Below, piece by piece: positions 34,563 to 64,000 of a DNA stretch of 64,000 nt. The translations under genes were made by a program, and so were the position numbers. How positions within the stretch are numbered: the first letter of the stretch is position 1; each line of letters begins with the position of its first letter. The stretch lies in contig JACPPV010000023.1 of assembly GCA_016190825.1 (NCBI GenBank), positions 139,476 through 203,475 of the forward strand. Direction: 5' to 3'. The notes under the pieces were generated by a model. The model did not search any database. It was not told the DNA's origin and was given only the letters and a program-made list of their open reading frames with translations. The stretch comes from Chloroflexota bacterium (lineage in GTDB: Bacteria > Chloroflexota > Dehalococcoidia > Dehalococcoidales > UBA2162).

Positions 34563-34570
34563 TTCCCTTT

Positions 34571-36368: not shown

Positions 36369-36370
36369 TA

Positions 36371-37127: not shown

Positions 37128-37474
37128 CGGTTTACCTTGTAGTCCTCTACCGCGAGCAGGGTTGCCCCGTCCCGCGATACGGTGACCGTGACTTTCGTAA
37201 TATTGTCGGCGATAGGACTGAAATCGATAAAAACATCGTAGCCTGGCTCACTGACGGCGGAATATGTTCCTGTTTCGTTATAAGAAACGGCCTTAATCGC
37301 CTCCAGGTTTGTGCGCGCCAGGCTCTGTGCTGTGGCATCCTGACCGGCGACGCGGACCGCCAGTGAGCCGGTTGAAAGGGCTGAAATTGCGGCAACTACG
37401 GCGGTCCCCAGTATGGCGACCGCAATCAAAGCCTCAACCAGGCCGGCCCCCCTTTCCTGCCAGACCAGGTTCAT
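37124..37474 (-). CDS. Minor pilin (PilV-like)
   Basis: MNLVWQERG/AGLVEALIAVAILGTAVV. 4-nt overlaps on both sides. Confidence 0.7.
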   Translation of the reverse strand: MNLVWQERGAGLVEALIAVAILGTAVVAAISALSTGSLAVRVAGQDATAQSLARTNLEAIKAVSYNETGTYSAVSEPGYDVFIDFSPIADNITKVTVTVSRDGATLLAVEDYKVNR

Positions 37475-38679: not shown

Positions 38680-38774
38680 AGTTTTTCCCCAATCTGATCG
38701 AAGCAGGGGTTTGCCGCAGGCTTATTTCCAGGGAGAACAAAGACGCCTTTAATCGCGGTCAAGCAAATCAAAAA

Positions 38775-46384: not shown

Positions 46385-47894
46385 ATATTTCCGGCCCCCC
46401 GCCAACAAAAATCCTGTTATATAGGTCTACCCCGTAGCTGGTGTCCAGTGGCTCACCATTAGTCAGCCTGTAAGTTCGGGTTCCGTCCGTCTTTCTTTCA
46501 GCACGCAAGAAAAGAGCCTCATTCGTCCTTGCTTCGTAGAGCTCGTGCGCAAACTGATACAGATGAGATACGAAGATTACCTTGACCTGCCTCTCTATCA
46601 TAGCAGCTACTATCTGTCTCGCAATCTCTGATCCTTCTATCTCGTTCGTGGCGGCAAACGTTTCGTTAAGCAGAACCAGAGAATGGGCGGACAAATGGTC
46701 TGCAATTTGACTCATGCGGCTAAGTTCATCATCCAATTTGCCGCTTTCCATAGAGACGTCTTCCTTGCGCTTAAAGTGTGTGAAAAGCCCTGTGCACAAA
46801 TTGGCACAAAAAGAACGGGCTGGAACAAACATCCCGCAATGCATCATCATTTGTGATAGGCCTACGCTCCGCAAAAAGGTCGTCTTTCCACCCTTGTTAG
46901 CTCCGGTCACTATGATGAGACTCTTGCTATCGGCATTGATGTCGTTCGCTACCACCTGTTGTCCCATGCTCAGTGCCAGGGAAATGTCATAAAGCCCCTC
47001 GGATGAGAATATGCGCTCGCCCACCGCGGCAACCACAGGAAAGCACGTTGGCTCACCCAATTCGGCAAGGCGCTCATGCAGATTGACACAGCCCAGGTAG
47101 AATGCGAGTTCGGTCTGCAATGTAACAAGGAAGTTGAGAACGTGGTCTACCGATTGGGCAGTGGCATTGGCCACTGAGTTGATCCCCCTGTTCCTAAGCT
47201 CGCCCAGTTTCCTGATCGCAGTCTCATCTTGGTCATTGATACGGAAGGTGTATGCTCTTGGCCCCCTGCTGAATACCCGTTGGATCCATTTCTTCTGGTT
47301 GTTTGATTTGAGCAATACGTAGTTGCTGCCCCGGTTGCCTTTCCCTAACTGTGCGCCGATCAGAACTTCATCTCGCAAACTCAACTCCCAAAGATGCCCC
47401 TCAATTTCTTCCAGGTATTCGCTGCTAATCTCTCCCTTGATTCTTGCGAAGAACTCTTTAAAACCCTCCGATTCAAATTTACCGGCATCTTGATCAGCAA
47501 CGCTCTTCAGTGTTTTCAGCGTACCCAGGAATACTTGTAAACTTTCGACGGCACGGAAGAGAATCGACCATGGGGAGTTGGCAAGGCCTGCGGCCCAGTG
47601 GGACACTTTTCTGTCTCCAATAACGCTAACCGCGAGCTCGTACAGTCTCTTTACCACAAAGGGATTCTTCAGACAATCCCTGAGGACTGCCTGTCGGTAA
47701 AATATGACGTCGGGTCCGTTACCGAAGCCTGACAGTAGCGCGCTCTGTGCCACTCGGTGTAGGAACTCGTCGTCATTGGCCATGGCGCTGGAAATGGGAG
47801 CAAGTTGGAGGTCCTGGATCAACTCCGGGCCGTTCCAAGGCGCATTTTGCTCCAGATCGAAGTCTCGATCCTTGTACATCAGGTAGACTTTCAC
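46368..47894 (-). CDS. MutS-domain-V-only ATPase, paralog B
   Basis: 508 aa. Walker A GANKGGKTT, Walker B LVLLNETFAATN (Asn in place of Asp), FVSHLYQF. No MutS domain I or Smr recognisable. GTG start shares 1 nt with the upstream stop (taGTG). Confidence 0.8.
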   Translation of the reverse strand: MKVYLMYKDRDFDLEQNAPWNGPELIQDLQLAPISSAMANDDEFLHRVAQSALLSGFGNGPDVIFYRQAVLRDCLKNPFVVKRLYELAVSVIGDRKVSHWAAGLANSPWSILFRAVESLQVFLGTLKTLKSVADQDAGKFESEGFKEFFARIKGEISSEYLEEIEGHLWELSLRDEVLIGAQLGKGNRGSNYVLLKSNNQKKWIQRVFSRGPRAYTFRINDQDETAIRKLGELRNRGINSVANATAQSVDHVLNFLVTLQTELAFYLGCVNLHERLAELGEPTCFPVVAAVGERIFSSEGLYDISLALSMGQQVVANDINADSKSLIIVTGANKGGKTTFLRSVGLSQMMMHCGMFVPARSFCANLCTGLFTHFKRKEDVSMESGKLDDELSRMSQIADHLSAHSLVLLNETFAATNEIEGSEIARQIVAAMIERQVKVIFVSHLYQFAHELYEARTNEALFLRAERKTDGTRTYRLTNGEPLDTSYGVDLYNRIFVGGGPEIYAKVQ

Positions 47895-49423
47895 TATTTT
47901 ATTCGCTCCTTCAGAGACTTATACGTCAGGCCATACTTTTCGGCTATTGCCGCCGCATAGGAGAGCCCGTATGGGGGCCTCCTTACGATCTTGTACGTAC
48001 GCAGTGACGGATTTTGGGGGGCCACCATGCTAACCATGCTCACCGCCTTGTCGCTGTATGATGCTAGCTCCTCGACAAACGTTACCCACACACAAAGCAA
48101 GTCTAACTGGCTTAGACTTTCCATCACCTTTTTACTTAGGAAGACAGCATCTTTTAGCGTCGTGGAAGTCAAAATCTCGTTAGCGATGACGATGCTGCGC
48201 GACGTAGCCTCGTCGAGAATGCCATGGATCCTCGTGAGATCATCTTCCAGTTTACTTCTCAGGTCCTCAACGGTTTCTTCTTTTTCGAAATGGGTAAATA
48301 GCCTGTCGAACAAGAAGAGTTTTGCTTCCTTTCCCGGCACAGGGCAGCCTAGGTTGGCAAGATAGTGCGACTGTCCAAAGATGCGCGCAAAAGTCGTCTT
48401 TCCTCCCTGGTTCGGCCCAGAGACCACGAATATGCGCTCCTTGCCCTTCATGAAAAAGTCATTGCATACAGTAGGCCTGCCTTCGGGAATAAGCTTGTTG
48501 GCCAAAGCTAGATCAAACCCTTCCAGCTGGGAGATTTCTTTGTTTGTCTCTGAGACTTCAGGATAGCAGAGTTTGAGCCCTGCCGCCTTGATGGAATTAA
48601 TAAATTCCAGATAGGCGACATAAAACTGTATTTCGCGGTCAAAATCAGCGATTTTCTTATCAAGAAAGTCTACGTTCTTTTCACAAAAATCATACAGCTC
48701 TTCAAATACTTCAGGATATAATTGAGCCACCGCCTCAAGAATCACTGCCTCCATGTCGTTCATGTCTGCCGGCTCAGAAAACGTGATCCGGTAATCCCTA
48801 GCTCCTCCCTGTTTGAACCTCTCGAATGTCTTCTCCACTTCTGCGCTGTAGTCCCCCTTAGACTCGCGCTTTCGGACGGTGAAGTTCTTTCCTTTGATAT
48901 GTACGCAGTAGTCCACTCCAGCTAGATTGGCCCCCACTCGCTGTGTTTCTGCTGCAAAAGACGTGAAAGGCTCTGATTTTACGTAGTCTCGTAAGTATTC
49001 GCGGAACGCCAGGAACCCCCGCGATTTCAGATCTGCTGCCGAAAGGTCACGATAGAGAGAGCTGACTGCGTGGCAGTAGGCATCCACTGCGTCCAGGAAC
49101 CACCTTTGCTTCTGGAGCTGGTAGGAAAGCCTTTCACTCCGCGCGAGGCAATCACGCATAGTGTGCATCCGTTGCGCAAAGGCCGCTATGATCCTGGCAG
49201 GCTCTTGTCTTTCAAGTTCCTGCATTACTTCGTGACGGTATTCGATGGCGCCGATACGTTTCAGAGCAGACCAGAAGAAGGGCCTCAGATTGTATTCTTC
49301 CTTGCCCAAGGTAACCGCTTCCGCAATCTGGTCAAGATTCAGATCAGCAAAAAAGCCCGGCAGCTCCGGTTTTTTCATTGGCCTGTCTTCAGGCCTCTCG
49401 AACAAAATGCTTTCAAAGCTCAT
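47894..49423 (-). CDS. MutS-domain-V-only ATPase, paralog A
   Basis: 509 aa. Walker A GPNQGGKTT, Walker B IVIANEILTSTT, WVTFVEEL (no His). The ~330-aa N-terminal helical region has no mismatch-binding motif. Confidence 0.8.
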   Translation of the reverse strand: MSFESILFERPEDRPMKKPELPGFFADLNLDQIAEAVTLGKEEYNLRPFFWSALKRIGAIEYRHEVMQELERQEPARIIAAFAQRMHTMRDCLARSERLSYQLQKQRWFLDAVDAYCHAVSSLYRDLSAADLKSRGFLAFREYLRDYVKSEPFTSFAAETQRVGANLAGVDYCVHIKGKNFTVRKRESKGDYSAEVEKTFERFKQGGARDYRITFSEPADMNDMEAVILEAVAQLYPEVFEELYDFCEKNVDFLDKKIADFDREIQFYVAYLEFINSIKAAGLKLCYPEVSETNKEISQLEGFDLALANKLIPEGRPTVCNDFFMKGKERIFVVSGPNQGGKTTFARIFGQSHYLANLGCPVPGKEAKLFLFDRLFTHFEKEETVEDLRSKLEDDLTRIHGILDEATSRSIVIANEILTSTTLKDAVFLSKKVMESLSQLDLLCVWVTFVEELASYSDKAVSMVSMVAPQNPSLRTYKIVRRPPYGLSYAAAIAEKYGLTYKSLKERIK

Positions 49424-50385: not shown

Positions 50386-50871
50386 ATGATGCAGCTACGA
50401 AGGATGTCACCCATTATGGGAATGGTAACATTGTTCTTTGTCACTGGTCTGGTGGTTCCTGTCTTTATGGCCTGCGCTTCTCCGCAGGAGCCGGCATCCC
50501 CTCCGCCGCTCCCTCCTTTAGGTGGAGACAAGGGAAATCCGAAGCTGAGCTCTCAGCTTAACCAGCTTGTCCAGGCAGAGAGCCGAGGAGAGGCTGTGTC
50601 GTTTGCGCAGCAGCAGAACATCGTGCTTGTTGACAGGAAAGTAAGGGTAGTTATAGAAACCCTACCTGGTCAGCTCGAGATGGCAAGGCAAGCTGTTGCC
50701 AGTGTTGGGACAGTGGAGGCAAGCGATGAAGGTCTGCTTCAGGCGATTGTGCCGGTTAGCAGCCTCAATTCCCTGGCTGAAGAGCCCGGCATCAAGTTTA
50801 TCCGGCTTCCCATGCTGCCGGTGCCCGGTGCCAAGGATGATAATGCTCAGCAGTTGAAGACGGGGGAGTGA
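50386..50871 (+). CDS. Lipoprotein paralogous to the subtilase N-terminal propeptide (I9-like)
   Basis: 161 aa. Signal peptide with lipobox VFMAC. Residues ~50-145 align with the N-terminal region of the next protein (NPKL.S.LN...VRV.IET......RQA....GTVEASD..LLQ......L..LA..PG..F.R.P). ATGA overlap with it. Confidence 0.65.
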   Translation: MMQLRRMSPIMGMVTLFFVTGLVVPVFMACASPQEPASPPPLPPLGGDKGNPKLSSQLNQLVQAESRGEAVSFAQQQNIVLVDRKVRVVIETLPGQLEMARQAVASVGTVEASDEGLLQAIVPVSSLNSLAEEPGIKFIRLPMLPVPGAKDDNAQQLKTGE

Positions 50872-53800
50872 TGAAACTACTCAAATTAGTCCAGCTATTG
50901 GTCGTCGCTGCCCTGTTATTGAGCGCATCCCTTTCTTACTCGGAGCCATTACCTGTTTCCGCCGCCGATCCTGAACCGCAGCCAGTACAACTTCCAAAGA
51001 ACGCCAACCCGAAACTTGATTCGCGGCTGAATCGTGTGCTCAAGGAGCAAAACGACAAAACGACGTCCCGTCCAGCCCAGCAGAATCCCGATGAAGTTGG
51101 GACTGAAACTGTGCGCGTGATCATCGAGACCTCAGCCAACCAGATGGGGCAGGTCCGGCAGGCGGCATCAGGACTCGGCACTGTTGAAGCCAGCGACGGC
51201 AACCTGCTACAGGTGAACGTGTTGGCGGGACAACTGGCGGCGCTGGCAGACCTGCCGGGCGTGCGCTTTGTCAGGACGCCTTATAGTTTTGTGGAGGATG
51301 TGGTCAGCGAGGGCGTGGCCGTCATTGGCGCTGATGTATGGCAGAACGCCAGCTACAATGGCAGCGGTGTCAAGGTAGGCATTGTTGACGGCGGATTTGC
51401 CGGTTACACGACGCGGCAGGCTGAGGGCGAGCTGCCGGCCAGCATCACTACCTGGTGGGCACCAAGCATCGGGAATGAGGGAACAGAAAAGCACGGCACG
51501 GGAGTAGCTGAGATTGTTTATGATGTTGCTCCCGGCGCCCAGTTCTACCTGGCGAACGTGGATACAGAAGTCGACCTTGGCAATGCGGTCGACTGGATGA
51601 TTGCCCAGGGCGTCAATGTCATTTCGATGTCCCTGGGCTGGTATCCCGGGGGTCCGGGCGACGGCACAGGTCCGATAGCTGTGATAGTAAACAGGGCACG
51701 CGCCGCTGGCATCCTCTGGGTGAACAGCGCCGGAAACTCGGCACGAGAACATTGGCAGGGGAATTTTGTTGACACCGACGGCGACACGTGGCATGAATTC
51801 AGCCAGCCCTCCCCATTTGATGAAAACCAGTCCATCTTTGTTCAGACTGGAGCCTCCATAATCGTTTTCTTGAAATGGGACGACCCCTGGGGAAGCTCGT
51901 CCAATAACTACGACCTCTATTTGACTGATAATCAGAGTATCATCCGCGCTGCCTCTGAAGATGTTCAGAATGGTAACGATGACCCCGTGGAAGCTCTCCA
52001 GTTTACCGGTGCGTATACCGGCTTCTACAGAATATGGATCAAGAAGGTCGGCAGCCCGGCAGTAAGAAACTTCCACCTGTACAGCCTTGTCCAAACCCTG
52101 GAATACCAGGTGGCATCAGGCAGTCTGACTGTGCCCGCCGATTCGCCAAATGTGATGACGGCTGGTGCGGTTTACTGGAACAACGCGGGAACGATCGAAT
52201 CTTTCAGCTCGCAGGGACCCACCACTGATGGCAGGACCAAACCCGATATTGTCGCGCCGGATGGCGTCAGTACGCGCGCTTACAGCCCTGGAACGTTCTC
52301 CGGCACTTCCGCTTCTGCACCTCACGTGGCCGGCGCGGCGGCGCTGGTGAAGCAAGCGTATCCATCATATGACGTCGTCCAGATACAGGCCTTCCTCGAA
52401 GGCAGGGCAGTCGACCTCGGTGATGCCGGGAAGGATAATGTATTCGGCAGCGGCAGGCTGAGCCTCGGCTATATGACTCCGCTAGTGACCACCGATGACG
52501 CCACCACTGTCAGTCATAACTCAGCCAGCCTCAGCGGAAACCTGACTTCTCTGGGCACGGCAAGCTCAGCCAACGTCACTTTTCAGTGGGGGGGAGAGTC
52601 AGAAAACTATACTGCCAGCACTATCATTCAGACAATGAATACCACCGGCAGCTTTAGCTCCGATTTAACCAGCCTGTCGGCGAATACCACCTACTATTTC
52701 CGGGCGAAGGCGAGCGGGCAGGGCGATGCGTATGGAGTCGAGAAGAGCTTCACTACGTTAGCGATACCCGTTCCCACCGGGCTGGTCAAAATCTCCCTAG
52801 ACAATAACCCTTTTACCGCCTTCAAATGGAACGCGGTTGATAACGCTACTGCTTATCAAGTCATGGTGGACTCCGGCAACTGGACGGATATCGGCAACCG
52901 GCTGACCTACGTCCAGCCCACCATCTTGGGCAAAGGCAGCCACACCTTCCAGGTGCGGACGAAAGACCTGTGGGGCAGTGCCAGTTCGGCAGCCAGCTTG
53001 AGCTTCAATGTGACCGTGACGGCGGACCTGGCGAATACAAAGATCGCTTTCGTTTCAAACCGTGATGGGAACATGGAAATATACGTGATGAACACCAATG
53101 TGACTGGAGTGAACCGGCTCACGACGGACACCTCGCACGATTCTTATCCATCATGGTCGCCTGACGTGAGCAAGATTCTTTTTACACCCAGTCGTGACGG
53201 ACAACAAGAGATTTACATGATGAACAAAGATGGATCCAACCAGGTACGCCTGACCAATTCTCTTGGCTCTGACTTCGAATCGCGATGGTTTCCAGACGGC
53301 CAGAAGATTGTCTTTACATCTAGCCGAGATAACAGTTACGAGATTTATGTGATGAATGCTGATGGAAGCGGTCAAACGAATCTGACAAACTACCCAAATC
53401 CGAATCTCGCTTATAATCAGGGAATAGACTGGCAACCAGCGGTATCCCCGGATGGCACCAGAATTGCTTTTGTTTCAACCAGGGGAAGCGTCCCTGGAAC
53501 ATCCCAAAATCTAGATATTTACCTCATGAACGCAGACGGGTCTGATGTTGAAAGGTTAACTAGCCATGAGAGCAGTGACGAGAACCCATCATTTTCGCCC
53601 GACGGCAAGACGGTCGCCTTTAACTCGCATCGGAACACGTATTCAGAGATTTACCTGATGGATGTAGATGGCACTAATCAGCGAAGGCTAACCTACAGTG
53701 CGAGCAGCCAGACCGGCCACAATTTGAGACCGATCTGGTCTCCTGATGGCTCCAAAATACTGTTCGAAAGAGCAACTAATGGCGTCCCGCGAATCTATTC

Positions 53801-56798
53801 CATAAATCTGGATGGCACCGGTGAAACAAATCTTACCGACTCCATGCCCGGGGACAACTTCTTTCCGTCATGGTCCCCCTTCCTAACTCCACCAACCGTA
53901 ACTACCAATAATGCCGCGAATATCACCTACAGCTCGGCAGTCCTGAGCGGCAACCTGACATCGCTCGGCACGGCAAGCTCAGCCAACGTCACTTTTCAGT
54001 GGGGGGGAGAGTCAGAAAACTATACTGCCAGCACTATCATTCAGACAATGAATACCGCCGGCAGCTTTAGCTCCGATTTAACCAGCCTTTCGGCGAACAC
54101 CACGTATTTTTTCAGGGCGAAGGCTGCCGGTGACGGAGCAGCGTATGGAATCGAGAAGAGCTTCACCACTTTGCCCACTACCCCGGTGGTGAGCACGGAT
54201 AATGCCACGGAGGTTACTTTTAGTTTCGCAATATTGAACGGCACCTTGACCTCATTCGGTACGGCAAGCTCAGCCAATGTTTCCTTCCAGTGGGGGTTGA
54301 ATTCGGAAAACTATACCGGTGAGATTTCTTCGAACTACACATCGATGAACTCTACCGGCGTTTTCAGCGGTAATCTGACCGGTCTCAGTCCGGCCACTAC
54401 CTATTATTTCAGAGCCAGAGCGGTCGGTGATGGCGCCGGCTACGGCGAAGAAAGAAGCTTCACGACCGCGGTTATTCCCTCCCCATCGGTTATCACCGAT
54501 GAGGCCACCAACATTACCTTTACCTCTGCGCAACTTAATGGAAACCTGACCTCTCTGGGCACGGCATCTTCAGTTAATGTATCTTTCGAGTTAGGCGTCA
54601 CTTCTGGTAACTTCACCGGCTATACCGTTCCTCAGACAGTGAATGCCACTGGCAGTTACTCGTTTGCCCTGGGGAGCCTGTCTCCCAACCAGACTGTTTA
54701 TTTCCGGGCGAAGGCGGTCGGCAATGGCACCAGCTACGGTGAGGAAAAGAGCTTCACCACACCAGCGGGGACAGCGCCATCAGTGACAACTGATAATGCC
54801 ACCAATATTACCCATGATTCGGCTTGGCTAAATGGTAGCCTGGCATCATTGGGCACGGCTGACTCCGTCAATGTCTCTTTCCAGTGGGGAACAAGCCCAT
54901 TAACCTATACTGCCGAGACTACTGCCGAATCAATGAATGTAACTGGTGATTTCTATTTCATCCTAGACAGTCTATCCGCTAACACAACCTATTATTTTCG
55001 GGCGAGAGCCCTTGGACATGGCACATTTTCTGGAAGTGAGAAGAGCTTCACAACGCTGCCCACAACCCCGCCATCCGTTACTACTGAGAATGCCAGCGAT
55101 ATCAGGTTTTATGATGCTCGCTTAAACGGTAATCTATCTTCCCTGGGTACAGATGCCTCAGCCAATGTCTCCTTCCAATGGGGAATTAGCTCTGACAACT
55201 ACACGGTTGAGACTCCTGTACAGACAACAAACATTACCGGCCCCTTCAGTGCCAACCTTACCGGATCCCTCTCTGCTAACACCACCTACTATTTCCGTGC
55301 AAAAGCAGCCGGGCAGGGCACTGGCTATGGCGAAGAATTGAGTTTCACTACTTTGCCCACCACTCCGCCCGATGTCATTACGGGAAACGCCACCAATGTG
55401 AGCTACTTCTCAGCGACTCTGAGTGGCACTCTGACGGAACTCGGCACGGCGGCCTCAGTCAATGTCACCTTCCGGTGGGGGACGAGTTCAGGAAATCTAA
55501 CCTCCAACACTTCTGTCCAGACAATGAATGCTACCGGTCTGTTCTCCCTTGACCTGGGCGGCCTGTCAGCCAACACAACCTACTACTATCGCGCCCGGGC
55601 GGAGGGCCACGATTCTGACTCCGGCAGCGAAAGGAGCTTCACCACCCTGGCTACAACTTTACCAACCGTGACTACTCTAGGCGTTGCCAGTGTTACATCG
55701 AGCGGCGCCAGACTGAGCGGGAATCTCACTTCTCTGGGTACGGCTGACTCGGTCAATGTCTCTTTCCAGTGGGGAACAAGCCCGGAGAGCTATACTGCCG
55801 AGACGGCTATACAACCAATAAATGCAATCGGGACTTTCCAGGCTGACGTGGCGCTTTTGGCGAGTACTACCTACTATTTCCGCGCTAAAGTCGCCGGGCA
55901 TGGCGTCGCGTTTGGCGATGAGATGACCTTCACAACATCGGAACCACCGCCCCCATCCAGCGGCGGTGGAGGTGGCGGTGGGGGTGGGGCGCCATCTGGC
56001 ATCATAGCGCTTGGTGTAAACGGCTTCCTGGGAGTAGGTCCACTCATCAACGCTATCACTGGCGTTACTCTGAATGCTGTGAACCTCATCTCTACGGATG
56101 GCAAGGCTTCGGTTGCCATCATAGCCAATACCACCATGCTCATGCCGACCGGACTGGCGGTCACCGGCCTTTCTGCGATTGTGGCTGAGCCTCCGGCTGA
56201 GCCGTCGCCCGGGGGCGCCATCATTCTCAACTATGAGTTCGGGCCCGATGGGGCTAGGTTTGACCCGGCGCTTACGATTGTGATGAGCTATGCCGACGAC
56301 CAGCTACCATCTGGGTTTTCAGAAGCGAACCTGTACCTGGCTTTCTGGGATGGCTCGGAGTGGGTACAACTGGCAAGCATTGTCAATCCAGAGGACAATA
56401 CGGTCACCGGGAAAGTGGAGCATTTCACCAGTATTGCCTTGATTGCGGGAAAACCGGCTCAACCTGTTTCGGTAGTGCAACCACCACCTTTTACTCCAGA
56501 TCCGACGCCTGATCCGGCTCCGGCGTTTTTATCACCTCAACCGTTGACTCCGGAACCTCAGCAGCCGTCGGCTGTTGAGCCCGCTCCTGCCCCGGCGCCC
56601 GAAGTACCACCGGTGCCGGATAGGGAAGCGACTTCGGAACCGATTGTGGGTGAGCCATCGCCTTCCGAGGCGGCGCCCATTCCTACCGGCGTCTTCTCTT
56701 GGTGGTGGATTATCGGTGCGGTCATTGGCGTGGCGATAATCGGCGGCGTAGTATACAGAGTACTGCGGTCAAAGGTGAGGCTGACACCCGAAAAATAA
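50868..56798 (+). CDS. Giant membrane-anchored S8 subtilisin-like protease with FN3-like repeats and a TolB-like beta-propeller
   Basis: 1976 aa. Signal peptide, propeptide, catalytic triad D (VGIVDGG), H (HGTGVAE), S (GTSASAPHVAG). One ~97-aa repeat, one FN3 domain, six PD40 blades (..EIYVMN..). Seven more ~97-aa repeats, a Gly run, a C-terminal globular domain, a Pro-rich stalk and a TM anchor WWWIIGAVIGVAIIGGVVY. Confidence 0.9.
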   Translation: MMKLLKLVQLLVVAALLLSASLSYSEPLPVSAADPEPQPVQLPKNANPKLDSRLNRVLKEQNDKTTSRPAQQNPDEVGTETVRVIIETSANQMGQVRQAASGLGTVEASDGNLLQVNVLAGQLAALADLPGVRFVRTPYSFVEDVVSEGVAVIGADVWQNASYNGSGVKVGIVDGGFAGYTTRQAEGELPASITTWWAPSIGNEGTEKHGTGVAEIVYDVAPGAQFYLANVDTEVDLGNAVDWMIAQGVNVISMSLGWYPGGPGDGTGPIAVIVNRARAAGILWVNSAGNSAREHWQGNFVDTDGDTWHEFSQPSPFDENQSIFVQTGASIIVFLKWDDPWGSSSNNYDLYLTDNQSIIRAASEDVQNGNDDPVEALQFTGAYTGFYRIWIKKVGSPAVRNFHLYSLVQTLEYQVASGSLTVPADSPNVMTAGAVYWNNAGTIESFSSQGPTTDGRTKPDIVAPDGVSTRAYSPGTFSGTSASAPHVAGAAALVKQAYPSYDVVQIQAFLEGRAVDLGDAGKDNVFGSGRLSLGYMTPLVTTDDATTVSHNSASLSGNLTSLGTASSANVTFQWGGESENYTASTIIQTMNTTGSFSSDLTSLSANTTYYFRAKASGQGDAYGVEKSFTTLAIPVPTGLVKISLDNNPFTAFKWNAVDNATAYQVMVDSGNWTDIGNRLTYVQPTILGKGSHTFQVRTKDLWGSASSAASLSFNVTVTADLANTKIAFVSNRDGNMEIYVMNTNVTGVNRLTTDTSHDSYPSWSPDVSKILFTPSRDGQQEIYMMNKDGSNQVRLTNSLGSDFESRWFPDGQKIVFTSSRDNSYEIYVMNADGSGQTNLTNYPNPNLAYNQGIDWQPAVSPDGTRIAFVSTRGSVPGTSQNLDIYLMNADGSDVERLTSHESSDENPSFSPDGKTVAFNSHRNTYSEIYLMDVDGTNQRRLTYSASSQTGHNLRPIWSPDGSKILFERATNGVPRIYSINLDGTGETNLTDSMPGDNFFPSWSPFLTPPTVTTNNAANITYSSAVLSGNLTSLGTASSANVTFQWGGESENYTASTIIQTMNTAGSFSSDLTSLSANTTYFFRAKAAGDGAAYGIEKSFTTLPTTPVVSTDNATEVTFSFAILNGTLTSFGTASSANVSFQWGLNSENYTGEISSNYTSMNSTGVFSGNLTGLSPATTYYFRARAVGDGAGYGEERSFTTAVIPSPSVITDEATNITFTSAQLNGNLTSLGTASSVNVSFELGVTSGNFTGYTVPQTVNATGSYSFALGSLSPNQTVYFRAKAVGNGTSYGEEKSFTTPAGTAPSVTTDNATNITHDSAWLNGSLASLGTADSVNVSFQWGTSPLTYTAETTAESMNVTGDFYFILDSLSANTTYYFRARALGHGTFSGSEKSFTTLPTTPPSVTTENASDIRFYDARLNGNLSSLGTDASANVSFQWGISSDNYTVETPVQTTNITGPFSANLTGSLSANTTYYFRAKAAGQGTGYGEELSFTTLPTTPPDVITGNATNVSYFSATLSGTLTELGTAASVNVTFRWGTSSGNLTSNTSVQTMNATGLFSLDLGGLSANTTYYYRARAEGHDSDSGSERSFTTLATTLPTVTTLGVASVTSSGARLSGNLTSLGTADSVNVSFQWGTSPESYTAETAIQPINAIGTFQADVALLASTTYYFRAKVAGHGVAFGDEMTFTTSEPPPPSSGGGGGGGGGAPSGIIALGVNGFLGVGPLINAITGVTLNAVNLISTDGKASVAIIANTTMLMPTGLAVTGLSAIVAEPPAEPSPGGAIILNYEFGPDGARFDPALTIVMSYADDQLPSGFSEANLYLAFWDGSEWVQLASIVNPEDNTVTGKVEHFTSIALIAGKPAQPVSVVQPPPFTPDPTPDPAPAFLSPQPLTPEPQQPSAVEPAPAPAPEVPPVPDREATSEPIVGEPSPSEAAPIPTGVFSWWWIIGAVIGVAIIGGVVYRVLRSKVRLTPEK

Positions 56799-56959: not shown

Positions 56960-56988
56960 TTGACAAGGGTCGGGATGTCTTCTATACT
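56960..56988 (+). promoter_or_regulatory. Sigma70-type promoter of the corrinoid operon
   Basis: TTGACA (56960-56965), 17-nt spacer, TATACT (56983-56988). Confidence 0.55.
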
Positions 56989-57002
56989 ATCACCAACAAT
57001 TG

Positions 57003-57205
57003 AATAGCGTAGGTGTCGGTGTCCCGGCGCTTCCAGTTTGACTGGGAAGATCCGGGGCTGAAAAGGGAAGCCTGTCAAAGTCAGGCGCGGTCCCGCCGCT
57101 GTAGCAGGGACGAAACCCGGGATAATGCCACTTTTCCGATGAATCGGGAGGGGAAGGCGCCGGGAAGTAGGTTGAACTGAAAGCCAGAAGACCTGCCGAC
57201 AAGTT
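57003..57205 (+). promoter_or_regulatory. Cobalamin (AdoCbl) riboswitch aptamer
   Basis: Conserved core ..gctgaAAAGGGAAgcctgtcaaagtcaggcGCGGTCCCGCCGCTGTagc.., B12 box aatGCCACTtttcc, and ..GGGAAGGCgccgg. Confidence 0.85.
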
Positions 57206-57241
57206 ACCTCGTGGAAAGGGCCTTATCGGGAAATGGTAAAT

Positions 57242-57280
57242 CCCCCGGCCGAAAGCTTAAAGGCTGGGGGATTCGTTTTT
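57242..57280 (+). terminator. Riboswitch expression-platform terminator (first)
   Basis: CCCCCGGCC-gaaagcttaaa-GGCTGGGGG (9 bp including one G-U pair), then attcgttttt. Confidence 0.6.
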
Positions 57281-57292
57281 AGCACCACATAG

Positions 57293-57331
57293 ATCCCTAG
57301 ACTTAATAAGCTTAAGTTTAGGGATTTTTTT
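57293..57331 (+). terminator. Second intrinsic terminator in the same leader
   Basis: ATCCCTAGA-cttaataagcttaag-TTTAGGGAT, then a T8 run, 33 nt before the cobS ATG. Confidence 0.55.
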
Positions 57332-57363
57332 ATTGGCCTCGAAAGTGTGGAAGGGTGATGTAA

Positions 57364-58107
57364 ATGGGATTTCTATTGGCTTTACAGTTTTTGACCAGGG
57401 TCCCCATCACAATCCCCCGTATTGTGGATGACAGGGTGATGGCGCGGTCCCTGTCCTATTTCTCCCTCGTTGGCTTACTGATTGGCGCAAGCGCTGCCGG
57501 ACTGCACTACCTGCTTAGTCTGGGCTTCTCACCGACGGTAGCCAATCTGGGCGCAATCATTTTTATGATCTTCGTGACAGGCAATCTTCACGGCGATGGC
57601 CTGATGGATACGGCTGACGGCATTTTCAGCGGGCGTCCGCGGGCCCAGATGCTGGAAATTATGAAGGATAGCCGGGTCGGTGCTAATGGGGTGACGGCTG
57701 GCGTCCTGGCCGTGTTGCTGAAAGTTGTCCTATTGGGCGAGATGGATAGGTCATCGCAGATGATGGCGCTGGCAGTGGCGCCGGCACTGGGCCGCTGGGC
57801 GCAGGTATATGGGGCTGCCCGCTACACCTATGCCAGAAGCAATGGTGGAACGGGCGCCTTTACAGCTCATGTGGGCTGGCGGGAGCTGATTATCAATTCA
57901 ATAGTGGCTGCCGTGTTGGGTCTGGCGCTTTTGAGGATGCATGGATTTATTCTCCTGGGGATTATCCTGGCCGGCACTGTCCTGTTTCACGAGTTCATCA
58001 AGAGTAAACTGGGCGGTATTACCGGTGACACACTCGGCGCTGCCAATGAATGGATAGAAATATTGGCTCTCTTAGGGATGGTTCTCTTGCTATCACCCAG
58101 GTTTTAG
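57364..58107 (+). CDS. cobS: Adenosylcobinamide-GDP ribazoletransferase (cobalamin synthase)
   Basis: 247 aa. MGFLLALQFLTRVPI N-terminus, HGDGLMDTADG motif, multi-TM. Confidence 0.9.
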   Translation: MGFLLALQFLTRVPITIPRIVDDRVMARSLSYFSLVGLLIGASAAGLHYLLSLGFSPTVANLGAIIFMIFVTGNLHGDGLMDTADGIFSGRPRAQMLEIMKDSRVGANGVTAGVLAVLLKVVLLGEMDRSSQMMALAVAPALGRWAQVYGAARYTYARSNGGTGAFTAHVGWRELIINSIVAAVLGLALLRMHGFILLGIILAGTVLFHEFIKSKLGGITGDTLGAANEWIEILALLGMVLLLSPRF

Positions 58108-58111
58108 AAAG

Positions 58112-59212
58112 GTGCGAAAGATGCGCTTATCTATGGAAAAGGTACTAGCCGGCATTCGACCAGTGGACCGTGCCTGGCGGCTAAAAGCCAGAGAACGGCT
58201 GAATGACCTGGCCATTCCGCGCAACAGTCTGGGGTATTTGCTGGACCTGGCGGAACAGTTGGCCGCTATTAAAGAAAGCTTGAACCCTTCAGTAGCCAGG
58301 AAAATGGTGGTGACCATGGCTGGAGATCACGGTGTTGTAGCTGAGGGGGTGAGTGCATTCCCCCAGGAAGTGACCCGACAGATGGTAAGTAACTTCGTTG
58401 CCGGGGGCGCCGCCATCAATGTTTTGGCAGAAATGGCCGGCGCTGGTGTTACCGTGGTGGATATGGGAGTTGCAGCCGACCTGAGCGCTCTGGCAGAAAA
58501 ACAAAAGATACTTTCTTATAAAATCGCCTATGGTACACAAAATATAGTCAAGGGTCCGGCAATGACCCGAAAGCAGGCGGTCCAGGCGTTGGAAGCCGGC
58601 ATAGAGATTGCCGATCTCTTTGTAACAAACGGCATCGAGATGCTGGGCACGGGAGATATGGGTATCGGCAATACGACGCCCAGCAGCGCGATTCTGGCAG
58701 TGTTTTCCGGCCGACCTCCCCGACAGGTTACTGGACGGGGAACAGGGATCAGTGATAGCGCTTTTGATAACAAGGTCACGGTCATTGAAAAGGCTATCGC
58801 TCTAAACAAACCGGACCCAAGAGACGCTTTGGACGTCCTGTCCAAAGTGGGCGGCTTCGAGATTTCCGGGATTGCCGGGTTGATTTTAGGCGCAGCTTAC
58901 CATCGCATTCCGGTGGTGATAGACGGGTTGATTTCGTCCGCAGGGGCTTTGGCAGCAAAAAACCTGGCGCCCAGTGCCGTCGATTACATGATTGCAGCTC
59001 ACCAGTCCGTAGAACCGGGACACCAGTACATGCTGGAAGCCCTGGGGCTTAAGCCGATACTGAATCTAGACCTGCGTTTAGGAGAAGGCACCGGCGCGGC
59101 TCTGGCCATGCACATAGTTGAAACGTCTTCCCGGGTTATCAGCAAAATGCTGACTTTTGCTGATGCCGGTGTCACCGGACCACAGAATCAGGAGCGTATG
59201 GCACATGCATGA
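58112..59212 (+). CDS. cobT: Nicotinate-nucleotide--dimethylbenzimidazole phosphoribosyltransferase
   Basis: GDMGIGNTT, catalytic LGEGTGAA. The true start may be ATG 58133 (MEKVLAGIRPVD). Confidence 0.9.
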   Translation: MRKMRLSMEKVLAGIRPVDRAWRLKARERLNDLAIPRNSLGYLLDLAEQLAAIKESLNPSVARKMVVTMAGDHGVVAEGVSAFPQEVTRQMVSNFVAGGAAINVLAEMAGAGVTVVDMGVAADLSALAEKQKILSYKIAYGTQNIVKGPAMTRKQAVQALEAGIEIADLFVTNGIEMLGTGDMGIGNTTPSSAILAVFSGRPPRQVTGRGTGISDSAFDNKVTVIEKAIALNKPDPRDALDVLSKVGGFEISGIAGLILGAAYHRIPVVIDGLISSAGALAAKNLAPSAVDYMIAAHQSVEPGHQYMLEALGLKPILNLDLRLGEGTGAALAMHIVETSSRVISKMLTFADAGVTGPQNQERMAHA

Positions 59213-60737
59213 TCCGCAGGATATGAATCCCCAATACCTGGAAGACCTGGCTACAGGCTATTGGTACTCCGAGGTGCTTTTTACCGCCGTGGAACAGGGA
59301 CTTTTTACACGGTTGGAGCCTGACGGATTGTCCGTAGTGGAACTCGCCAGGCAACTAAACTATGATTTGGAAGCTTTGGAACGGTATATCCGTGCTCTGT
59401 CTGCTTTAGGACTCGTCTTTGAGGCCGATGGGTATTGCGCCAATACGAAGCTCTCCCGAAAATACCTGGTCCAGGGTGGCGAGGCTTATCAGGGCGACTC
59501 CATCCTCTGGCGCAAATATCTGGCTGAGAATTGGAAAAGCCTGAACCGGTGCCTGGAAAAAGGCACGCGGGTGCTTCTTCCTCCCCAAAATGAGCCTGAA
59601 GAAGCCGTCGAACAACGCCTTCGTCGTTATTGCTGGGCGATGGACTGCATTGCCAGGAACAAGATCGAACAAATCCTGCCATTTTTTTCGAGGCTACAGC
59701 TACGGGGAGAGATTCTGGATGTGGGTTCGGGCCTGGGTGCCTTTTCCGTTGGGTTCTTAAGGCAGTTTCCGGATACAAAAGCAGTCCTCCTGGATATGCC
59801 TCAGGTTCTAAAGTACGCAGAAGAAACCCTCTCCGGCCAGGGTTATCAGGACCGCATTCGTTATCAATCCACCAACGTACTGGAGCCGTGGGGTCTGCGA
59901 GAAACAGGATACAGCGTGGCCATTCTCTCTAACATAGTGCATGCCTTCGGCGAAGCAGAGGTTAGGCACGTGCTTTCTGAAGCGGCGGCCTATCTCGCAG
60001 ATGATGGCTTTTTGATCATCCATGATTTTTTCATGGAGCATTACCCGGAAAAGGCGAGCTTATCGGATCTGAATATGCTGGTGAATACCTATAACGGCAA
60101 AGTTTACACATCCGCCCGGATACGGCAGCAGCTAGGAAGCGCCGGCTTCATGGTGACGGAGCTAATTGCTCTGGGGTCAGACACAGCCGTTCTGGTGGCA
60201 GCCAGACAGCCGCAAAGGCTGGCTGATTTGTGCCTTGATCCTTTGCAGCAGATGTCGGCGCAGATACAGACTCTGGGTTTTCAAGTGGTCAAGCCAATTG
60301 ACGTAAGTGCCATAGCCGTATCTGAGTGGGTTGGGCTCAAGTGTGAATTTGGCTGTGACTTTTTCAACGCTTCGCAATGTCCCCCCAACAGTATCGAACC
60401 GGAGAAAACACGGGCAATGCTGAAGGATTTTTCAAAATGCCTGCTGTTGCAAGGCCCCCCACCAACCCCGGATTTTCAGAGACTGGTGCTGCAAGCGGAG
60501 CATACAGCTTTCAAAAAAGGATATTATAAGGCCTTTTCACTCTGGGCCGGTCCCTGCAGCATTTGCCCGGAGTGCGGCGGCAAAGAGAATTGCCATAATC
60601 GGAGCAACGCACGGCCTTCTATGGAAGCCGCCGGCATCGATGTTTTTGAAACTGTTCGTAAAGCCGGGCTTCCTTTGCAGACATTACCAGGTAAGGATGA
60701 TTACGTGAAATATTTTGCCATACTGTTATTGGAGTAA
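59205..60737 (+). CDS. bzaC: SAM-dependent O-methyltransferase fused to a Cys-rich DUF2284-like domain (BzaC-like)
   Basis: Start MHDPQD overlaps the cobT stop by 8 nt. Winged-helix dimerisation domain, SAM motif ILDVGSGLGAF. The C-terminal ~170 aa carry CEFGC..CPP and CSICPECGGKENC. Confidence 0.65.
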   Translation: MHDPQDMNPQYLEDLATGYWYSEVLFTAVEQGLFTRLEPDGLSVVELARQLNYDLEALERYIRALSALGLVFEADGYCANTKLSRKYLVQGGEAYQGDSILWRKYLAENWKSLNRCLEKGTRVLLPPQNEPEEAVEQRLRRYCWAMDCIARNKIEQILPFFSRLQLRGEILDVGSGLGAFSVGFLRQFPDTKAVLLDMPQVLKYAEETLSGQGYQDRIRYQSTNVLEPWGLRETGYSVAILSNIVHAFGEAEVRHVLSEAAAYLADDGFLIIHDFFMEHYPEKASLSDLNMLVNTYNGKVYTSARIRQQLGSAGFMVTELIALGSDTAVLVAARQPQRLADLCLDPLQQMSAQIQTLGFQVVKPIDVSAIAVSEWVGLKCEFGCDFFNASQCPPNSIEPEKTRAMLKDFSKCLLLQGPPPTPDFQRLVLQAEHTAFKKGYYKAFSLWAGPCSICPECGGKENCHNRSNARPSMEAAGIDVFETVRKAGLPLQTLPGKDDYVKYFAILLLE

Positions 60738-60742
60738 CGCTG

Positions 60743-62068
60743 GTGAAAGTATTGCTGGTCCAGGCGCCATCCGTTGAAAGCGCCAGTTCTGAGCGTGTAT
60801 ATCCCATAGGCATTGTGCTCCTGGGGACCCATCTCAGTAGGGCAGGGTACCAGGTGGCACTGTTTGATATGAACATCGAAGCCGATGCCTATGGTGCTTT
60901 GAAGGCTAAGCTGCTGGCCGAGCAACCGGACGTCGTGGGACTATCCCTGAGAAACATCGACCCACTGGCTAACAAAACAGCCTCTCTGATACCGCCCTTT
61001 GTCGTCACCGTGCGCATGGTGCGCGCGGTCTTGCCCGGCACGCCAATCATCGCCGGCGGGGCCGGTTTTTCGCTGTTTCCCGAGCGCATTATGCGGGAAC
61101 TGCCGGAAATCCGCTATGGTCTGAAGGGGGAAGCGGAGGGCAGTTTCCCGAGGCTATTGGAGGATTTAGAGCGGCCCGGGAAAATTCCAGGCTTGTGTTA
61201 CCGGGAACATGATCGGATGGTAATCAATCCGGTAGTTCCAGACTCTAGCTTTGAAGATTATCTTGTGCCCGACAGAGACTTGCTGCCCCCGGTCCTGTAC
61301 CGGGGCATCAACAAGTATGCTCCGGCCTTTGGCGTAGAAACCAAGAGGGGCTGCCCCTTGCGCTGCGCTTACTGCGTTTATCCCCAGCTTCAGGGCAAAA
61401 TATCACGCTGCCGCAAGCCTGCTGAAGTGGTTGACGAGATGGAAATGCTCCAAGCCAGGTACGGCCTTCGGGATTTTCATTTCAATGATCCCGTGGTCAA
61501 TCTGCCTGGCGGTCATCTGGAAGAAATCTGCGAGGAAATCCTGAAGAGAGGATTACATCTCACCTGGACTGGTTTCTTCCGTGAGGATGTAATGGATCCG
61601 GAAAAAGTGAGGCTCTATGAGAAATCCGGGTGCAGTTGTTTTTCCTTTTCGCCCGACGGTCTTTGTCAGAGCTCCCTGGAGGTGCTTCAGAAGAACCTGA
61701 AAGTCTCCGATATTCTCAGAGTCGCTGAACTGACGGCGCAAACCGATGCGGTAGTCGTGTACCATTTCCTGACCAATGTGCCCGGAGAAAATGCTGAAAC
61801 AATTCGACAGGGTAAAGCTTTGATTGACCAACTGTACGATATTCACGCGCTAAAGAAGAACCTCGGCGCTATGGTATTGAATAACATCCGGATTATGCCG
61901 GGGACACCCATCGAAGCCATCGCCAGAATGCAGGGAGAGATTGACACGGATACCGACCTGCTGTACCCCGTTTACTATAATCCCCAAAAGCACAGGACTT
62001 TAAGGTACGAGTTGGACACCTATCAGATGACAAAGAACGTTTTTATGTGGCAAGGAGTGGAGGCTTGA
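60743..62068 (+). CDS. B12-binding radical SAM enzyme (BzaD/BzaE-like methyltransferase)
   Basis: 441 aa. N-terminal Rossmann-like B12-binding domain (MKVLLVQAPS..). Radical SAM motif CPLRCAYCVYP. Confidence 0.65.
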   Translation: MKVLLVQAPSVESASSERVYPIGIVLLGTHLSRAGYQVALFDMNIEADAYGALKAKLLAEQPDVVGLSLRNIDPLANKTASLIPPFVVTVRMVRAVLPGTPIIAGGAGFSLFPERIMRELPEIRYGLKGEAEGSFPRLLEDLERPGKIPGLCYREHDRMVINPVVPDSSFEDYLVPDRDLLPPVLYRGINKYAPAFGVETKRGCPLRCAYCVYPQLQGKISRCRKPAEVVDEMEMLQARYGLRDFHFNDPVVNLPGGHLEEICEEILKRGLHLTWTGFFREDVMDPEKVRLYEKSGCSCFSFSPDGLCQSSLEVLQKNLKVSDILRVAELTAQTDAVVVYHFLTNVPGENAETIRQGKALIDQLYDIHALKKNLGAMVLNNIRIMPGTPIEAIARMQGEIDTDTDLLYPVYYNPQKHRTLRYELDTYQMTKNVFMWQGVEA

Positions 62069-62069
62069 T

Positions 62070-63587
62070 ATGAAGGTTTTACTCCTGGAGCACCCCCGGC
62101 AGATCGCTCAAAATAGATGCAACGACATCGCCAATGCCCCTCTTGCCTCCAGTTTGATTACCGGCTGTATCGCCGGTCTGCTGGACAGCCTGGGACATAA
62201 TGTCAGGATTGCAGAAGGGTTTTTGGATGAGATGACCTACGAGGAAATATACCAACAGGTCATCGCTTTTGCCCCGCCGGTGCTGGGTGTCCATATAGTC
62301 TATAACTGGGAAGACAACCGGCAATTGTTTGCCTTTCTGAAACGGCTGAATGCCGAAGGCCTGGTCGAGAAAATTGCAGGCTACGGGTACTATCCCACCT
62401 TTGCTTATCAGGAGATTCTTAAGTCCTGTCCCGAATTTGACGGGCTTATTATTGGCGAGCCAGAGCAAACCTTTGCCGAGTGGCTGGAAACCGGCGCACC
62501 TGTGCCAGGCATGGTCTGGGTGGATGCCGTCGGACAGACACAGATGCAGCACCGCGAGGTGAATCGTGACCTTGATGCGCTGCCAGACCCCATTCGCTCT
62601 GAAGCCATGCTGCGTATGGGGGAGGTCAATATTGAAAGCAGCCGGGGCTGCTACGGCAGATGCACCTTTTGCTATATCAACCCCTATTACGGGGCCGGTC
62701 CCTGTTGGCGGCCTAAAAGCCCGGAGCGTGTGATGCAGGAGATAGACCGCATCATCGCTCGGCATGGAGCGGTGAAGTTCTACTTTACCGACCCTAATTT
62801 TTTTGGCCCGGGGAAGCAGGGGCAGGCGCGCGTGACGAAGCTGGCGACCATGCTCAAGGAGAGGAAAATCCGCTTCGGTATCGAAGCCCGGGTTAATGAT
62901 ATCCACCAGGATACTATTGCTGCCCTGGTGGATGCAGGCCTGGAGGAATTGCTGATCGGTCTCGAGAGCGGCCGCAATGATTCACTTAAGCGGCTGAAAA
63001 AGATGACCACGGTGGAGCAGAACGAGAGAGCCTTGCGTATTCTGCGTGCCAACGGCATCGAACCCAGCGTGGGCTTCATCATGTTTGAGCCGGATTCTTC
63101 CCTGGCAGATATTCGCACCAATTTCGAATTCCTCAAACGCAATCGCCTGCTGGACAGAGTAATTACTACAGCCAACGTACTGTATCACCCGCAGATTATC
63201 CTTCAAGGAACCGAGGCGTACCGAGACCTAGAGCAGGAGGAACGGCTCATCCTTAAAGACACGACCTATGAAGGTGAGACGTCTTATTTGATTCCCGAGG
63301 TGGCCCATCTGGCGCAAATTATCGGACAGGTTACCAATTACTTCTTTGTCATGATGGATGAGGTCTGGAAGGGAAAGCTCCAGGAGCCATCGAAAGCTGC
63401 AAGCCTTTATCAGGATATCAATCATCTGCTGGTCAATTGTTTCGAGGAAAATCTAGGCCGATTGGAAGCAGGTGAATCCATCAATGAAGCGGCAGCGGAG
63501 AAGCTTGTTAGCGAAGTCAAGGTGAAAATTAAGTCTGTTTTCGAGCGGTTCTCCAGAATGCCGGCCGCAAACAAACGAAACGGTTAA
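62070..63587 (+). CDS. B12-binding radical SAM enzyme (BzaD/BzaE-like methyltransferase)
   Basis: 505 aa. MKVLLLEHPR.., radical SAM motif CYGRCTFCYI. Paralog of the preceding gene. Confidence 0.65.
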   Translation: MKVLLLEHPRQIAQNRCNDIANAPLASSLITGCIAGLLDSLGHNVRIAEGFLDEMTYEEIYQQVIAFAPPVLGVHIVYNWEDNRQLFAFLKRLNAEGLVEKIAGYGYYPTFAYQEILKSCPEFDGLIIGEPEQTFAEWLETGAPVPGMVWVDAVGQTQMQHREVNRDLDALPDPIRSEAMLRMGEVNIESSRGCYGRCTFCYINPYYGAGPCWRPKSPERVMQEIDRIIARHGAVKFYFTDPNFFGPGKQGQARVTKLATMLKERKIRFGIEARVNDIHQDTIAALVDAGLEELLIGLESGRNDSLKRLKKMTTVEQNERALRILRANGIEPSVGFIMFEPDSSLADIRTNFEFLKRNRLLDRVITTANVLYHPQIILQGTEAYRDLEQEERLILKDTTYEGETSYLIPEVAHLAQIIGQVTNYFFVMMDEVWKGKLQEPSKAASLYQDINHLLVNCFEENLGRLEAGESINEAAAEKLVSEVKVKIKSVFERFSRMPAANKRNG

Positions 63588-63607
63588 TGAAACGCAGGAG
63601 GGGAGAC

Positions 63608-64000
63608 ATGTCATTGTTAGAAGAGGCCACAAAAGGAGTCACCATAGAGCAACTACAAGCCGCTGCCGTCGCTGAAGGTGTATCGGTAGCAGTAATCAGG
63701 GAGGGAGTGGCCGATGGTACCATCGTAGTGCCTTGCAATCCCGCTCACAAAGGGCTGAGGCCAATGGCGATTGGCAAGGGGCTACGAACCAAAGTGAGCG
63801 CCAGCATCGGCCTGGACAGCAAGGACGGCACTGTAGCCTGTGAACTGGAGAAGCTGGGGGCAGCCCTGTCAGCCGGAACCGATGCAGTGATGGACCTCAG
63901 CGCCACCGGAGATATGGACTTCGCTCGCCGGGCCATTCTGTCGGCATCGCCGGTGCCTGTAGGCACCCTGCCTTTATATCAGACAATTGCTGAAGCCAGC
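63608..64000 (+). CDS. ThiC-family radical SAM enzyme, partial (5-hydroxybenzimidazole synthase BzaF/BzaA-like)
   Basis: AGGAGG RBS. MSLLEEATKGV..GKGLRTKVSASIG..GTDAVMDLSATGD..SPVPVGTLPLYQ aligns with the ThiC core. Runs off the window edge. Absent from the ORF track because there is no stop codon. Confidence 0.75.
   Translation, partial: MSLLEEATKGVTIEQLQAAAVAEGVSVAVIREGVADGTIVVPCNPAHKGLRPMAIGKGLRTKVSASIGLDSKDGTVACELEKLGAALSAGTDAVMDLSATGDMDFARRAILSASPVPVGTLPLYQTIAEAS

Follow-up and report, generated by a model that had tools for sequence, protein, structure and literature searches.

Can a member of the Dehalococcoidia make the lower ligand of its own cobamides? Dehalococcoides and Dehalogenimonas need cobalamin-type cobamides for their reductive dehalogenases and are treated as corrinoid auxotrophs that use exogenous 5,6-dimethylbenzimidazole (DMB) for remodelling (PMC11321594, PMC7506110, PMC13390414), and the genomes examined held no complete corrinoid pathway (PMC7506110). 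The question is raised by the last 7 kb of a 64,000-nt stretch of DNA, hereafter the window, from an uncultured member of the Dehalococcoidales (contig JACPPV010000023.1, positions 139,476 to 203,475), where a cobalamin riboswitch is followed by cobS, cobT, bzaC, bzaD, bzaE and the beginning of a ThiC-like gene that we assign to bzaA. We conclude that this region is probably a single transcription unit for the anaerobic synthesis and attachment of a benzimidazole lower ligand, which would be repressed by corrinoid through a transcription-terminating riboswitch. Both the pathway and its regulation are already known; what was not expected is the host class, in which the operon occurs with a clade-specific gene order.

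All features of the unit lie on the forward strand. It opens with a sigma-70-type promoter (56960..56988; an 11/12 match), in which TTGACA (56960-56965) and TATACT (56983-56988) are separated by a 17-nt spacer. The region as a whole holds no excess of promoter-like sites (5 found versus 5.1 expected from shuffles), and the case for this one rests on the conservation of its hexamers, both of which are identical in all of six aligned orthologous leaders. The aptamer of the riboswitch begins 11 nt past the promoter (57000..57214) and matches RF00174 over the full length of the model (positions 1-189) at 105.8 bits, the gathering score being 31.5 (E = 1.8e-25); the same family was found upstream in all six related operons tested. 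The aptamer is followed after 25 nt by an intrinsic terminator, T1 (57239..57280; 12-bp stem and U-tract, -23.7 kcal/mol, z = -3.96), the predicted expression platform. A hairpin with a U-tract stands at the equivalent position in 6/6 leaders, with stem sequences that differ. Because the alignment has a one-base register shift in this stem, the six leaders were folded one by one. A second terminator-like hairpin, T2, lies just downstream (57291..57334; 16-bp stem and a run of seven T, -19.3 kcal/mol, z = -5.89), and among the six orthologous leaders only that of Dehalogenimonas formicexedens NSZ-14 has an equivalent. The tandem-hairpin leader of the window is thus most like that of NSZ-14, although its coding regions are closer to the copies found in Firmicutes. 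We also considered a Trp-style attenuator formed by T1 and T2, and rejected it, the alternative pairing between the 3' arm of T1 and the 5' arm of T2 being only about 5-6 bp.

The six same-strand genes behind this leader are separated by +4, -8, +5, +1 and +20 nt, the 8-nt overlap assuming that bzaC starts at ATG 59205, and all six reading frames are intact as far as they lie in the window. The promoter, the riboswitch and this tight packing had been described in an earlier reading made from the letters alone (hereafter the sequence-only reading), and our analysis bears out all three. The first gene, cobS (57364..58107), encodes adenosylcobinamide-GDP ribazoletransferase (PF02654, 175.6 bits; TIGR00317, 135 bits versus a cutoff of 110) and has a Shine-Dalgarno sequence, GGAAGGGTGA, 6-7 nt upstream of its start. 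CobS joins alpha-ribazole or its phosphate to the corrinoid. It is followed by cobT (58112..59212), the nicotinate mononucleotide:benzimidazole phosphoribosyltransferase gene (TIGR03160, 444.9 bits versus a cutoff of 319; PF02277), and by a gene for an S-adenosylmethionine (SAM) O-methyltransferase of the BzaC type (59205..60737). The latter combines a PF08100 dimerisation domain, the PF00891 Methyltransf_2 domain and, at the C-terminus, the PF10050 DUF2284 metal-binding domain. It has the same position and architecture in all related operons, and the position is kept in about 100 loci; its predicted identity as BzaC is a match by architecture and synteny only.

Two B12-binding radical SAM enzymes come next. 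The first, bzaD (60743..62068), is a predicted C-methyltransferase that matches the TIGR04385 equivalog over its full length, with 655.1 bits against a cutoff of 450, and carries the CX3CX2C motif as CPLRCAYC. The second, of the BzaE type (62070..63587), has the B12-binding and Radical_SAM domains and a CX3CX2C motif, CYGRCTFC, which does not vary among 20 homologs. Its identity to proteins whose source name is 5-methoxy-6-methylbenzimidazole methyltransferase (two such among the homologs) is 52-55%. In about 95 of the roughly 105 loci with upstream DNA, its gene stands directly 3' of bzaD. The two proteins are 27% identical over 157 amino acids and are therefore old, distant paralogs. That they form a paralogous pair, and that this pair corresponds to BzaD and BzaE, had been proposed from the letters; profile hidden Markov models (HMMs) uphold BzaD directly, and the BzaE assignment follows from domains, homology, motif and synteny. 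The window closes within the ThiC-like gene, of which it holds the first 131 codons (63608..64000; PF01964).

Predicted pathway and product

Five Bza proteins are reported to convert aminoimidazole ribotide (AIR) to DMB (PMC12931638, PMC6461909), and the order of steps that we propose for the window is taken from this literature. At low levels of adenosyl-corrinoid, transcription from the 56960-56988 promoter would continue through the terminator at 57239-57280 into the operon; when corrinoid is plentiful, the arrangement of riboswitch and terminator implies repression. BzaA and BzaB would then convert AIR to 5-hydroxybenzimidazole, which CobT would turn into its alpha-ribotide; BzaC would O-methylate the ribotide, BzaD would add the methyl group at C6, and BzaE would take the 5-methoxy-6-methylbenzimidazole stage to the 5,6-dimethyl form. 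Finally, CobS would join alpha-ribazole phosphate to adenosylcobinamide-GDP to give cobalamin. The place of CobT in this scheme follows from the reported preference of BzaC for the ribotide of 5-hydroxybenzimidazole over the free base (PMC12931638): CobT acts earlier, and DMB is probably built as a ribotide, which explains the presence of cobT inside the operon. The sequence-only reading had taken the locus for a DMB operon in which BzaC methylates free 5-hydroxybenzimidazole. The assignment as a bza operon holds up against HMMs, synteny and phylogeny, but the substrate of BzaC has to be replaced by the ribotide made by CobT. With regard to regulation, a study of 38 cobalamin riboswitches found that some discriminate base-on cobamides from cobinamide, a behaviour that its authors considered suited to a cobT leader (PMC9600662). 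Possibly the leader riboswitch of the window likewise tells complete, base-on cobalamin apart from cobinamide and from other cobamides, in which case the operon would stay on exactly when DMB is required for remodelling.

Several points weigh against a complete DMB pathway under this control. The assignments of BzaA, BzaC and BzaE were made without a curated HMM. The activities of BzaD and BzaE, the former predicted to methylate C6 and the latter catalysing a reaction described as enigmatic, are not yet reconstituted in vitro (PMC12931638), and production of a cobamide or of DMB has yet to be demonstrated for any member of the clade to which this operon belongs or for any Dehalogenimonas (PMC13390414). 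BzaD and BzaE need a cobamide themselves, so that the pathway can start only with imported or self-made corrinoid, and the 64-kb window is uninformative on synthesis of the corrin ring. Moreover, the window contains neither bzaB nor the C-terminal two-thirds of bzaA, to which the Fe-S cysteines belong. The pathway had been called apparently complete. Its genes cobS-cobT-bzaC-bzaD-bzaE-bzaA are indeed seen; completeness is not, and would depend on a bzaB gene starting just past the window end, as it does directly after bzaA in 11/11 of the closest operons read that far.

The alternative that survives best is that the operon makes another benzimidazole, i.e. 5-hydroxy-, 5-methoxy- or 5-methoxy-6-methylbenzimidazole, as would happen if BzaD or BzaE of this clade lacked activity or had another specificity. 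Which benzimidazole is formed does depend on the subset of bza genes present (PMC6461909), the BzaE reaction is uncharacterised (PMC12931638), and the proteins of this clade share only about 50-57% identity with those of canonical operons. We nevertheless consider this outcome unlikely, since bzaC, bzaD and bzaE are all intact, with conservation of the radical SAM cysteines and of the B12-binding domains, BzaD scores above its equivalog cutoff, and DMB is the product expected from the full set of genes by the published rule.

A clade-specific gene order and its distribution

Relatives of the operon were collected by scanning GTDB representative genomes with a BzaE alignment, which gave 80 loci, and more were added by protein look-ups and a metagenome scan. 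The GTDB scan is no census of the Dehalococcoidia, as it missed NSZ-14 and Dehalogenimonas sp. THU2 although both contain the patterns searched for; the metagenome search for relatives of the window gave none closer than 81%, and an exact 42-nt search of metagenome contigs had no match. Within this collection, gene order follows sequence similarity. All loci with proteins at least about 68% identical to those of the window have the order (cobS)-cobT-bzaC-bzaD-bzaE-bzaA-bzaB, while loci at about 66% or below have either the canonical bzaA-bzaB-(cobS)-cobT-bzaC-bzaD-bzaE or, in Nitrospirota and Desulfobacterota, bzaC-bzaD-bzaE-bzaF with cobT-cobS later. Since the 3' position of bzaA-bzaB is found in all of the close loci and in none of the more distant ones, we regard it as the signature of one clade. 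The remark that the gene order is unlike that of Eubacterium and Moorella was therefore correct, although the order is not unique to this genome.

The best reference point is the anaerobic DMB operon of Eubacterium limosum and Acetobacterium woodii, bzaA-bzaB-cobT-bzaC-bzaD-bzaE, described by Hazra et al. (2015; as relayed by PMC12931638, PMC6461909 and bioRxiv 10.1101/612242). It shares with the window the gene families, the cobalamin riboswitch, the linkage to cobT and the predicted product, DMB for cobalamin. It differs in that the window has bzaA, with bzaB predicted to follow, at the 3' rather than the 5' end and cobS in first place, and in that the host is a member of the Dehalococcoidia and not an acetogenic Firmicute; the identity to proteins of canonical-order operons is about 45-57%. 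The bzaF-type loci (Geobacter-type; here in Nitrospirota and Desulfobacterota) likewise have bzaC-bzaD-bzaE as their core and a member of the ThiC family as 5-hydroxybenzimidazole synthase, but have a single bzaF instead of bzaA plus bzaB and place cobT and cobS further downstream. The aerobic DMB synthase BluB yields the same end product, and no bluB-like gene is present in the bza locus of the window. BluB is an unrelated, O2-dependent enzyme that destroys flavin. An unusual bza subset was seen in Neomoorella stamsii (locus L034, 5832-11494), where bzaA-bzaB-bzaC is directly followed by a BzaE-like gene, with no match to BzaD or cobT.

The rearranged order itself occurs in two groups of hosts. 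Among the Desulfotomaculia-type Firmicutes, Desulfotruncus arcticus, Desulfoscipio gibsoniae, Candidatus (Ca.) Dichloromethanomonas elyunquensis and Phosphitispora sp. share it, with proteins 72-82% identical to those of the window. Gene loss at the 5' end marks some Firmicute operons of this clade: those of D. arcticus (locus L001) and locus L002 lack cobS, and locus L004 lacks both cobS and cobT, in which the riboswitch directly precedes bzaC. Within the Dehalococcoidia, D. formicexedens NSZ-14 (CP018258, about 405-414 kb) and THU2 have the identical seven-gene order behind RF00174. Their proteins are 63-80% identical to those of the window, the flanking genes differ from genome to genome, and neither is the closest relative of the window operon. 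A tree of concatenated BzaC-BzaD-BzaE unites the rearranged-order operons of the window, THU2 and NSZ-14 and of four Bacillota (D. arcticus, Ca. Dichloromethanomonas elyunquensis, Phosphitispora sp. and one metagenome-assembled genome (MAG)) with a support of 100/100. In this clade NSZ-14 branches first and THU2 second, and the window is grouped with the Bacillota at 92/100, which, taken with the neighbourhoods and compositions described below, points to transfer of the operon between phyla.

In which direction the operon has moved is less clear. The window, THU2 and NSZ-14 carry it in three different chromosomal neighbourhoods, and an rve-family insertion sequence (IS) transposase gene lies directly upstream of the riboswitch and bza operon of NSZ-14 (locus L083, 3252-4292, in CP018258). 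In composition, the Dehalococcoidia operons match their flanks (tetranucleotide r = 0.84-0.91). The operons of D. arcticus (L001) and of two Logan contigs (L085 and L087) have a GC content of 51-52% against 41-42% in their flanks, and correlate with these flanks at r = 0.48 in L001 and 0.49 and 0.57 in L085 and L087; loci L002-L004 are intermediate (r = 0.72-0.78). This suggests that the three mismatched operons were recently acquired from a donor of higher GC content. The GC excess itself is weak evidence of transfer, because in most genomes examined bza operons exceed their flanks by 2-10 GC points, and we relied on the tetranucleotide correlation and the tree instead. For the same reason, namely that bza operons are generally somewhat richer in GC than their surroundings, a recent direction of transfer out of the Dehalococcoidia is graded as possible only. 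We tentatively entertain a wider reading, which we think has rather less than an even chance of being right: some Dehalococcoidia, including the cultured organohalide respirer NSZ-14, may be anaerobic DMB producers instead of lower-ligand scavengers, and possibly suppliers of DMB in dechlorinating communities, and the rearranged operon may be native to the class and have passed later to Desulfotomaculia-type Firmicutes, against the direction one would expect. In favour of this direction, the Dehalococcoidia copies are basal in the clade and match their hosts in composition, and three Firmicute-type copies do not match theirs.

A mobile history could also mean that the operon is recently acquired cargo, silent or decaying, in an organism that is still a scavenger. 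The three different chromosomal sites, the IS transposase next to the NSZ-14 copy and the general auxotrophy of the class (PMC7506110, PMC13390414) would be in keeping with this. We regard it as quite improbable, however. None of the six reading frames is disrupted, they are closely packed behind a conserved promoter, riboswitch and terminator, and the composition of the operon is fully ameliorated to the host. Furthermore, the other Dehalococcoidia copies have diverged from that of the window to 66-80% protein identity with the gene order unchanged, which argues for long-term purifying selection.

The ThiC-like gene and the host genome

The product of the ThiC-like gene aligns with the ThiC_Rad_SAM model from model position 3, which shows that the gene has no long N-terminal extension of the E. 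coli ThiC type, as the sequence-only reading had observed. By chance, a gene for thiamin hydroxymethylpyrimidine phosphate (HMP-P) synthase might follow bza genes, with the benzimidazole-forming step located elsewhere or absent, and model scores seem at first to favour such a gene: the best NCBIfam matches of the fragment are ThiC models (126.5 bits, slightly above the BzaB model), and its full-length Dehalogenimonas orthologs pass the short-ThiC model NF009895 with 575 bits against a cutoff of 410. Such scores were rejected as proof of thiamin ThiC and are uninformative, because bona fide BzaB passes the same model: the Dehalogenimonas BzaB proteins reach 753 and 745 bits on the BzaB exception model TIGR04386, whose cutoff is 700, and yet NF009895 gives them a score of 555. 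A PDB search returned ThiC structures only and does not separate BzaA, BzaF and ThiC.

Phylogenetic placement was more informative. We gathered 92 ThiC-like reading frames from 57 loci, with E. coli ThiC as the outgroup, and built a neighbour-joining tree of the 88 full-length proteins with 50 bootstraps. The 31 ThiC-like proteins most similar to the fragment are all (31/31) the first member of a bzaA-bzaB pair. In the tree, the first members of such pairs, i.e. BzaA, form one clade in 43/50 bootstraps, within which the six that are located at the 3' end of their operons group together (50/50), and the single-copy BzaF-type proteins form a separate clade (50/50). In agreement with this, two adjacent genes of Desulfotomaculum (now Desulfoscipio) gibsoniae, AGL00619 and AGL00620, were identified as bzaA and bzaB by the dedicated HMMs of Shelton et al. 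This species is the closest cultured relative, and its BzaE is 81% identical to that of the window. The gene stands behind a cobalamin and not a thiamin pyrophosphate (TPP) riboswitch, and neither a TPP riboswitch nor thi neighbours were found in the 64-kb window. Because its nearest relatives, its clade in the tree and the calls made for the D. gibsoniae ortholog agree, we assign the ThiC-like gene to bzaA, and neither to thiamin ThiC nor to BzaF; a thiamin gene that came to lie here by chance is very improbable. Of the two forms of ThiC paralog that had been envisaged, BzaF or BzaA plus BzaB, the second is thus favoured, and the view that the gene is not the thiamin enzyme is supported by its placement.

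The host can be read from genes outside the operon. The BzaE, PyrG and MutS-related proteins of the window are all recorded from one contig of a MAG labelled Chloroflexi. The best matches of PyrG (3091-4725; 53 kb upstream of the operon) are 77-90% identical, and the named ones are all from Chloroflexota, Dehalococcoidia or Dehalococcoidales. The MutS-related gene lies closer to the operon, at a distance of 8 kb on the upstream side, and its named best matches are of the same three designations down to about 66%, one Ca. Poribacteria entry at 63% being the only earlier exception, and Firmicutes appear only at 64% or below. The GC content of the operon is 0.534 as compared with 0.540 in the rest of the window, and its tetranucleotide correlation, 0.87, lies inside the window's own range of 0.72-0.93. 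With Dehalococcoidia best matches and uniform composition, chimerism or misbinning is unlikely. A contig in which Firmicute DNA is joined to Chloroflexota DNA might be suspected from the 72-82% identity to Desulfotomaculia-type proteins, which is much closer than expected across phyla, but it is scarcely credible given the even composition across the junction, the Dehalococcoidia affinities of the two upstream genes, the same operon in the closed genome of the isolate NSZ-14 and in THU2, and a tandem-hairpin leader most like that of NSZ-14. The sequence-only reading had held that such an operon would be notable in a lineage of lower-ligand scavengers, and pyrG and the MutS-related gene place it in one.

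The remainder of the window offers some further observations on this organism. It carries hisS, rho and uvrC, as well as a selenocysteine cluster with tRNA-Sec (17599-17691; RF01852, 67.8 bits), selB (19759-21735, minus strand) and selA (22150-23544, minus strand), in that order of coordinates, from which we infer that the organism decodes UGA as selenocysteine. Two adjacent MutS-related ATPase genes (46368-47894 and 47894-49423, minus strand; about 508 amino acids each) meet at a common start/stop junction, and their homologs are widespread in Dehalococcoidia and thermophilic Firmicutes. A type IV pilus set (33120-40532, minus strand) includes pilB (38775-40532), pilC (37471-38679) and a pilM-like gene (33120-34562). 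A predicted surface protein of 1976 amino acids (50868-56798, plus strand) combines a signal peptide with an S8-type subtilase domain, beta-propeller repeats of the PD40/TolB kind, some ten tandem repeats of ~95 amino acids resembling fn3 or the PhoD N-terminal domain and, in its C-terminal part, a Gly/Pro-rich linker followed by a membrane anchor; its gene ends 160 nt before the bza promoter.

Lower-ligand supply in the Dehalococcoidia

The suppliers of DMB in anaerobic dechlorinating communities were still described as unclear in a 2024 review (PMC11321594). Among Dehalogenimonas, only NSZ-14 and strain W carry precorrin genes, and the account that reports them leaves benzimidazole genes unmentioned (PMC13390414). 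Our own literature search, which was of incomplete coverage, found no mention of bza genes in Chloroflexota, and this is to be read as absence of evidence only. A complete, riboswitch-controlled bza operon in an uncultured member of the Dehalococcoidales and in two Dehalogenimonas would, if true, mean that part of the class can make its lower ligand from AIR. The claim is directly testable, as NSZ-14, reported with genes for precorrin biosynthesis, is in culture.

We consider the finding to be of moderate relevance to cobamide ecology and organohalide respiration. If our reading of the operon is correct, Dehalococcoidia of this kind would need only a corrin precursor, e.g. cobinamide, and the predictions now made for cross-feeding and for vitamin amendment in bioremediation would change.

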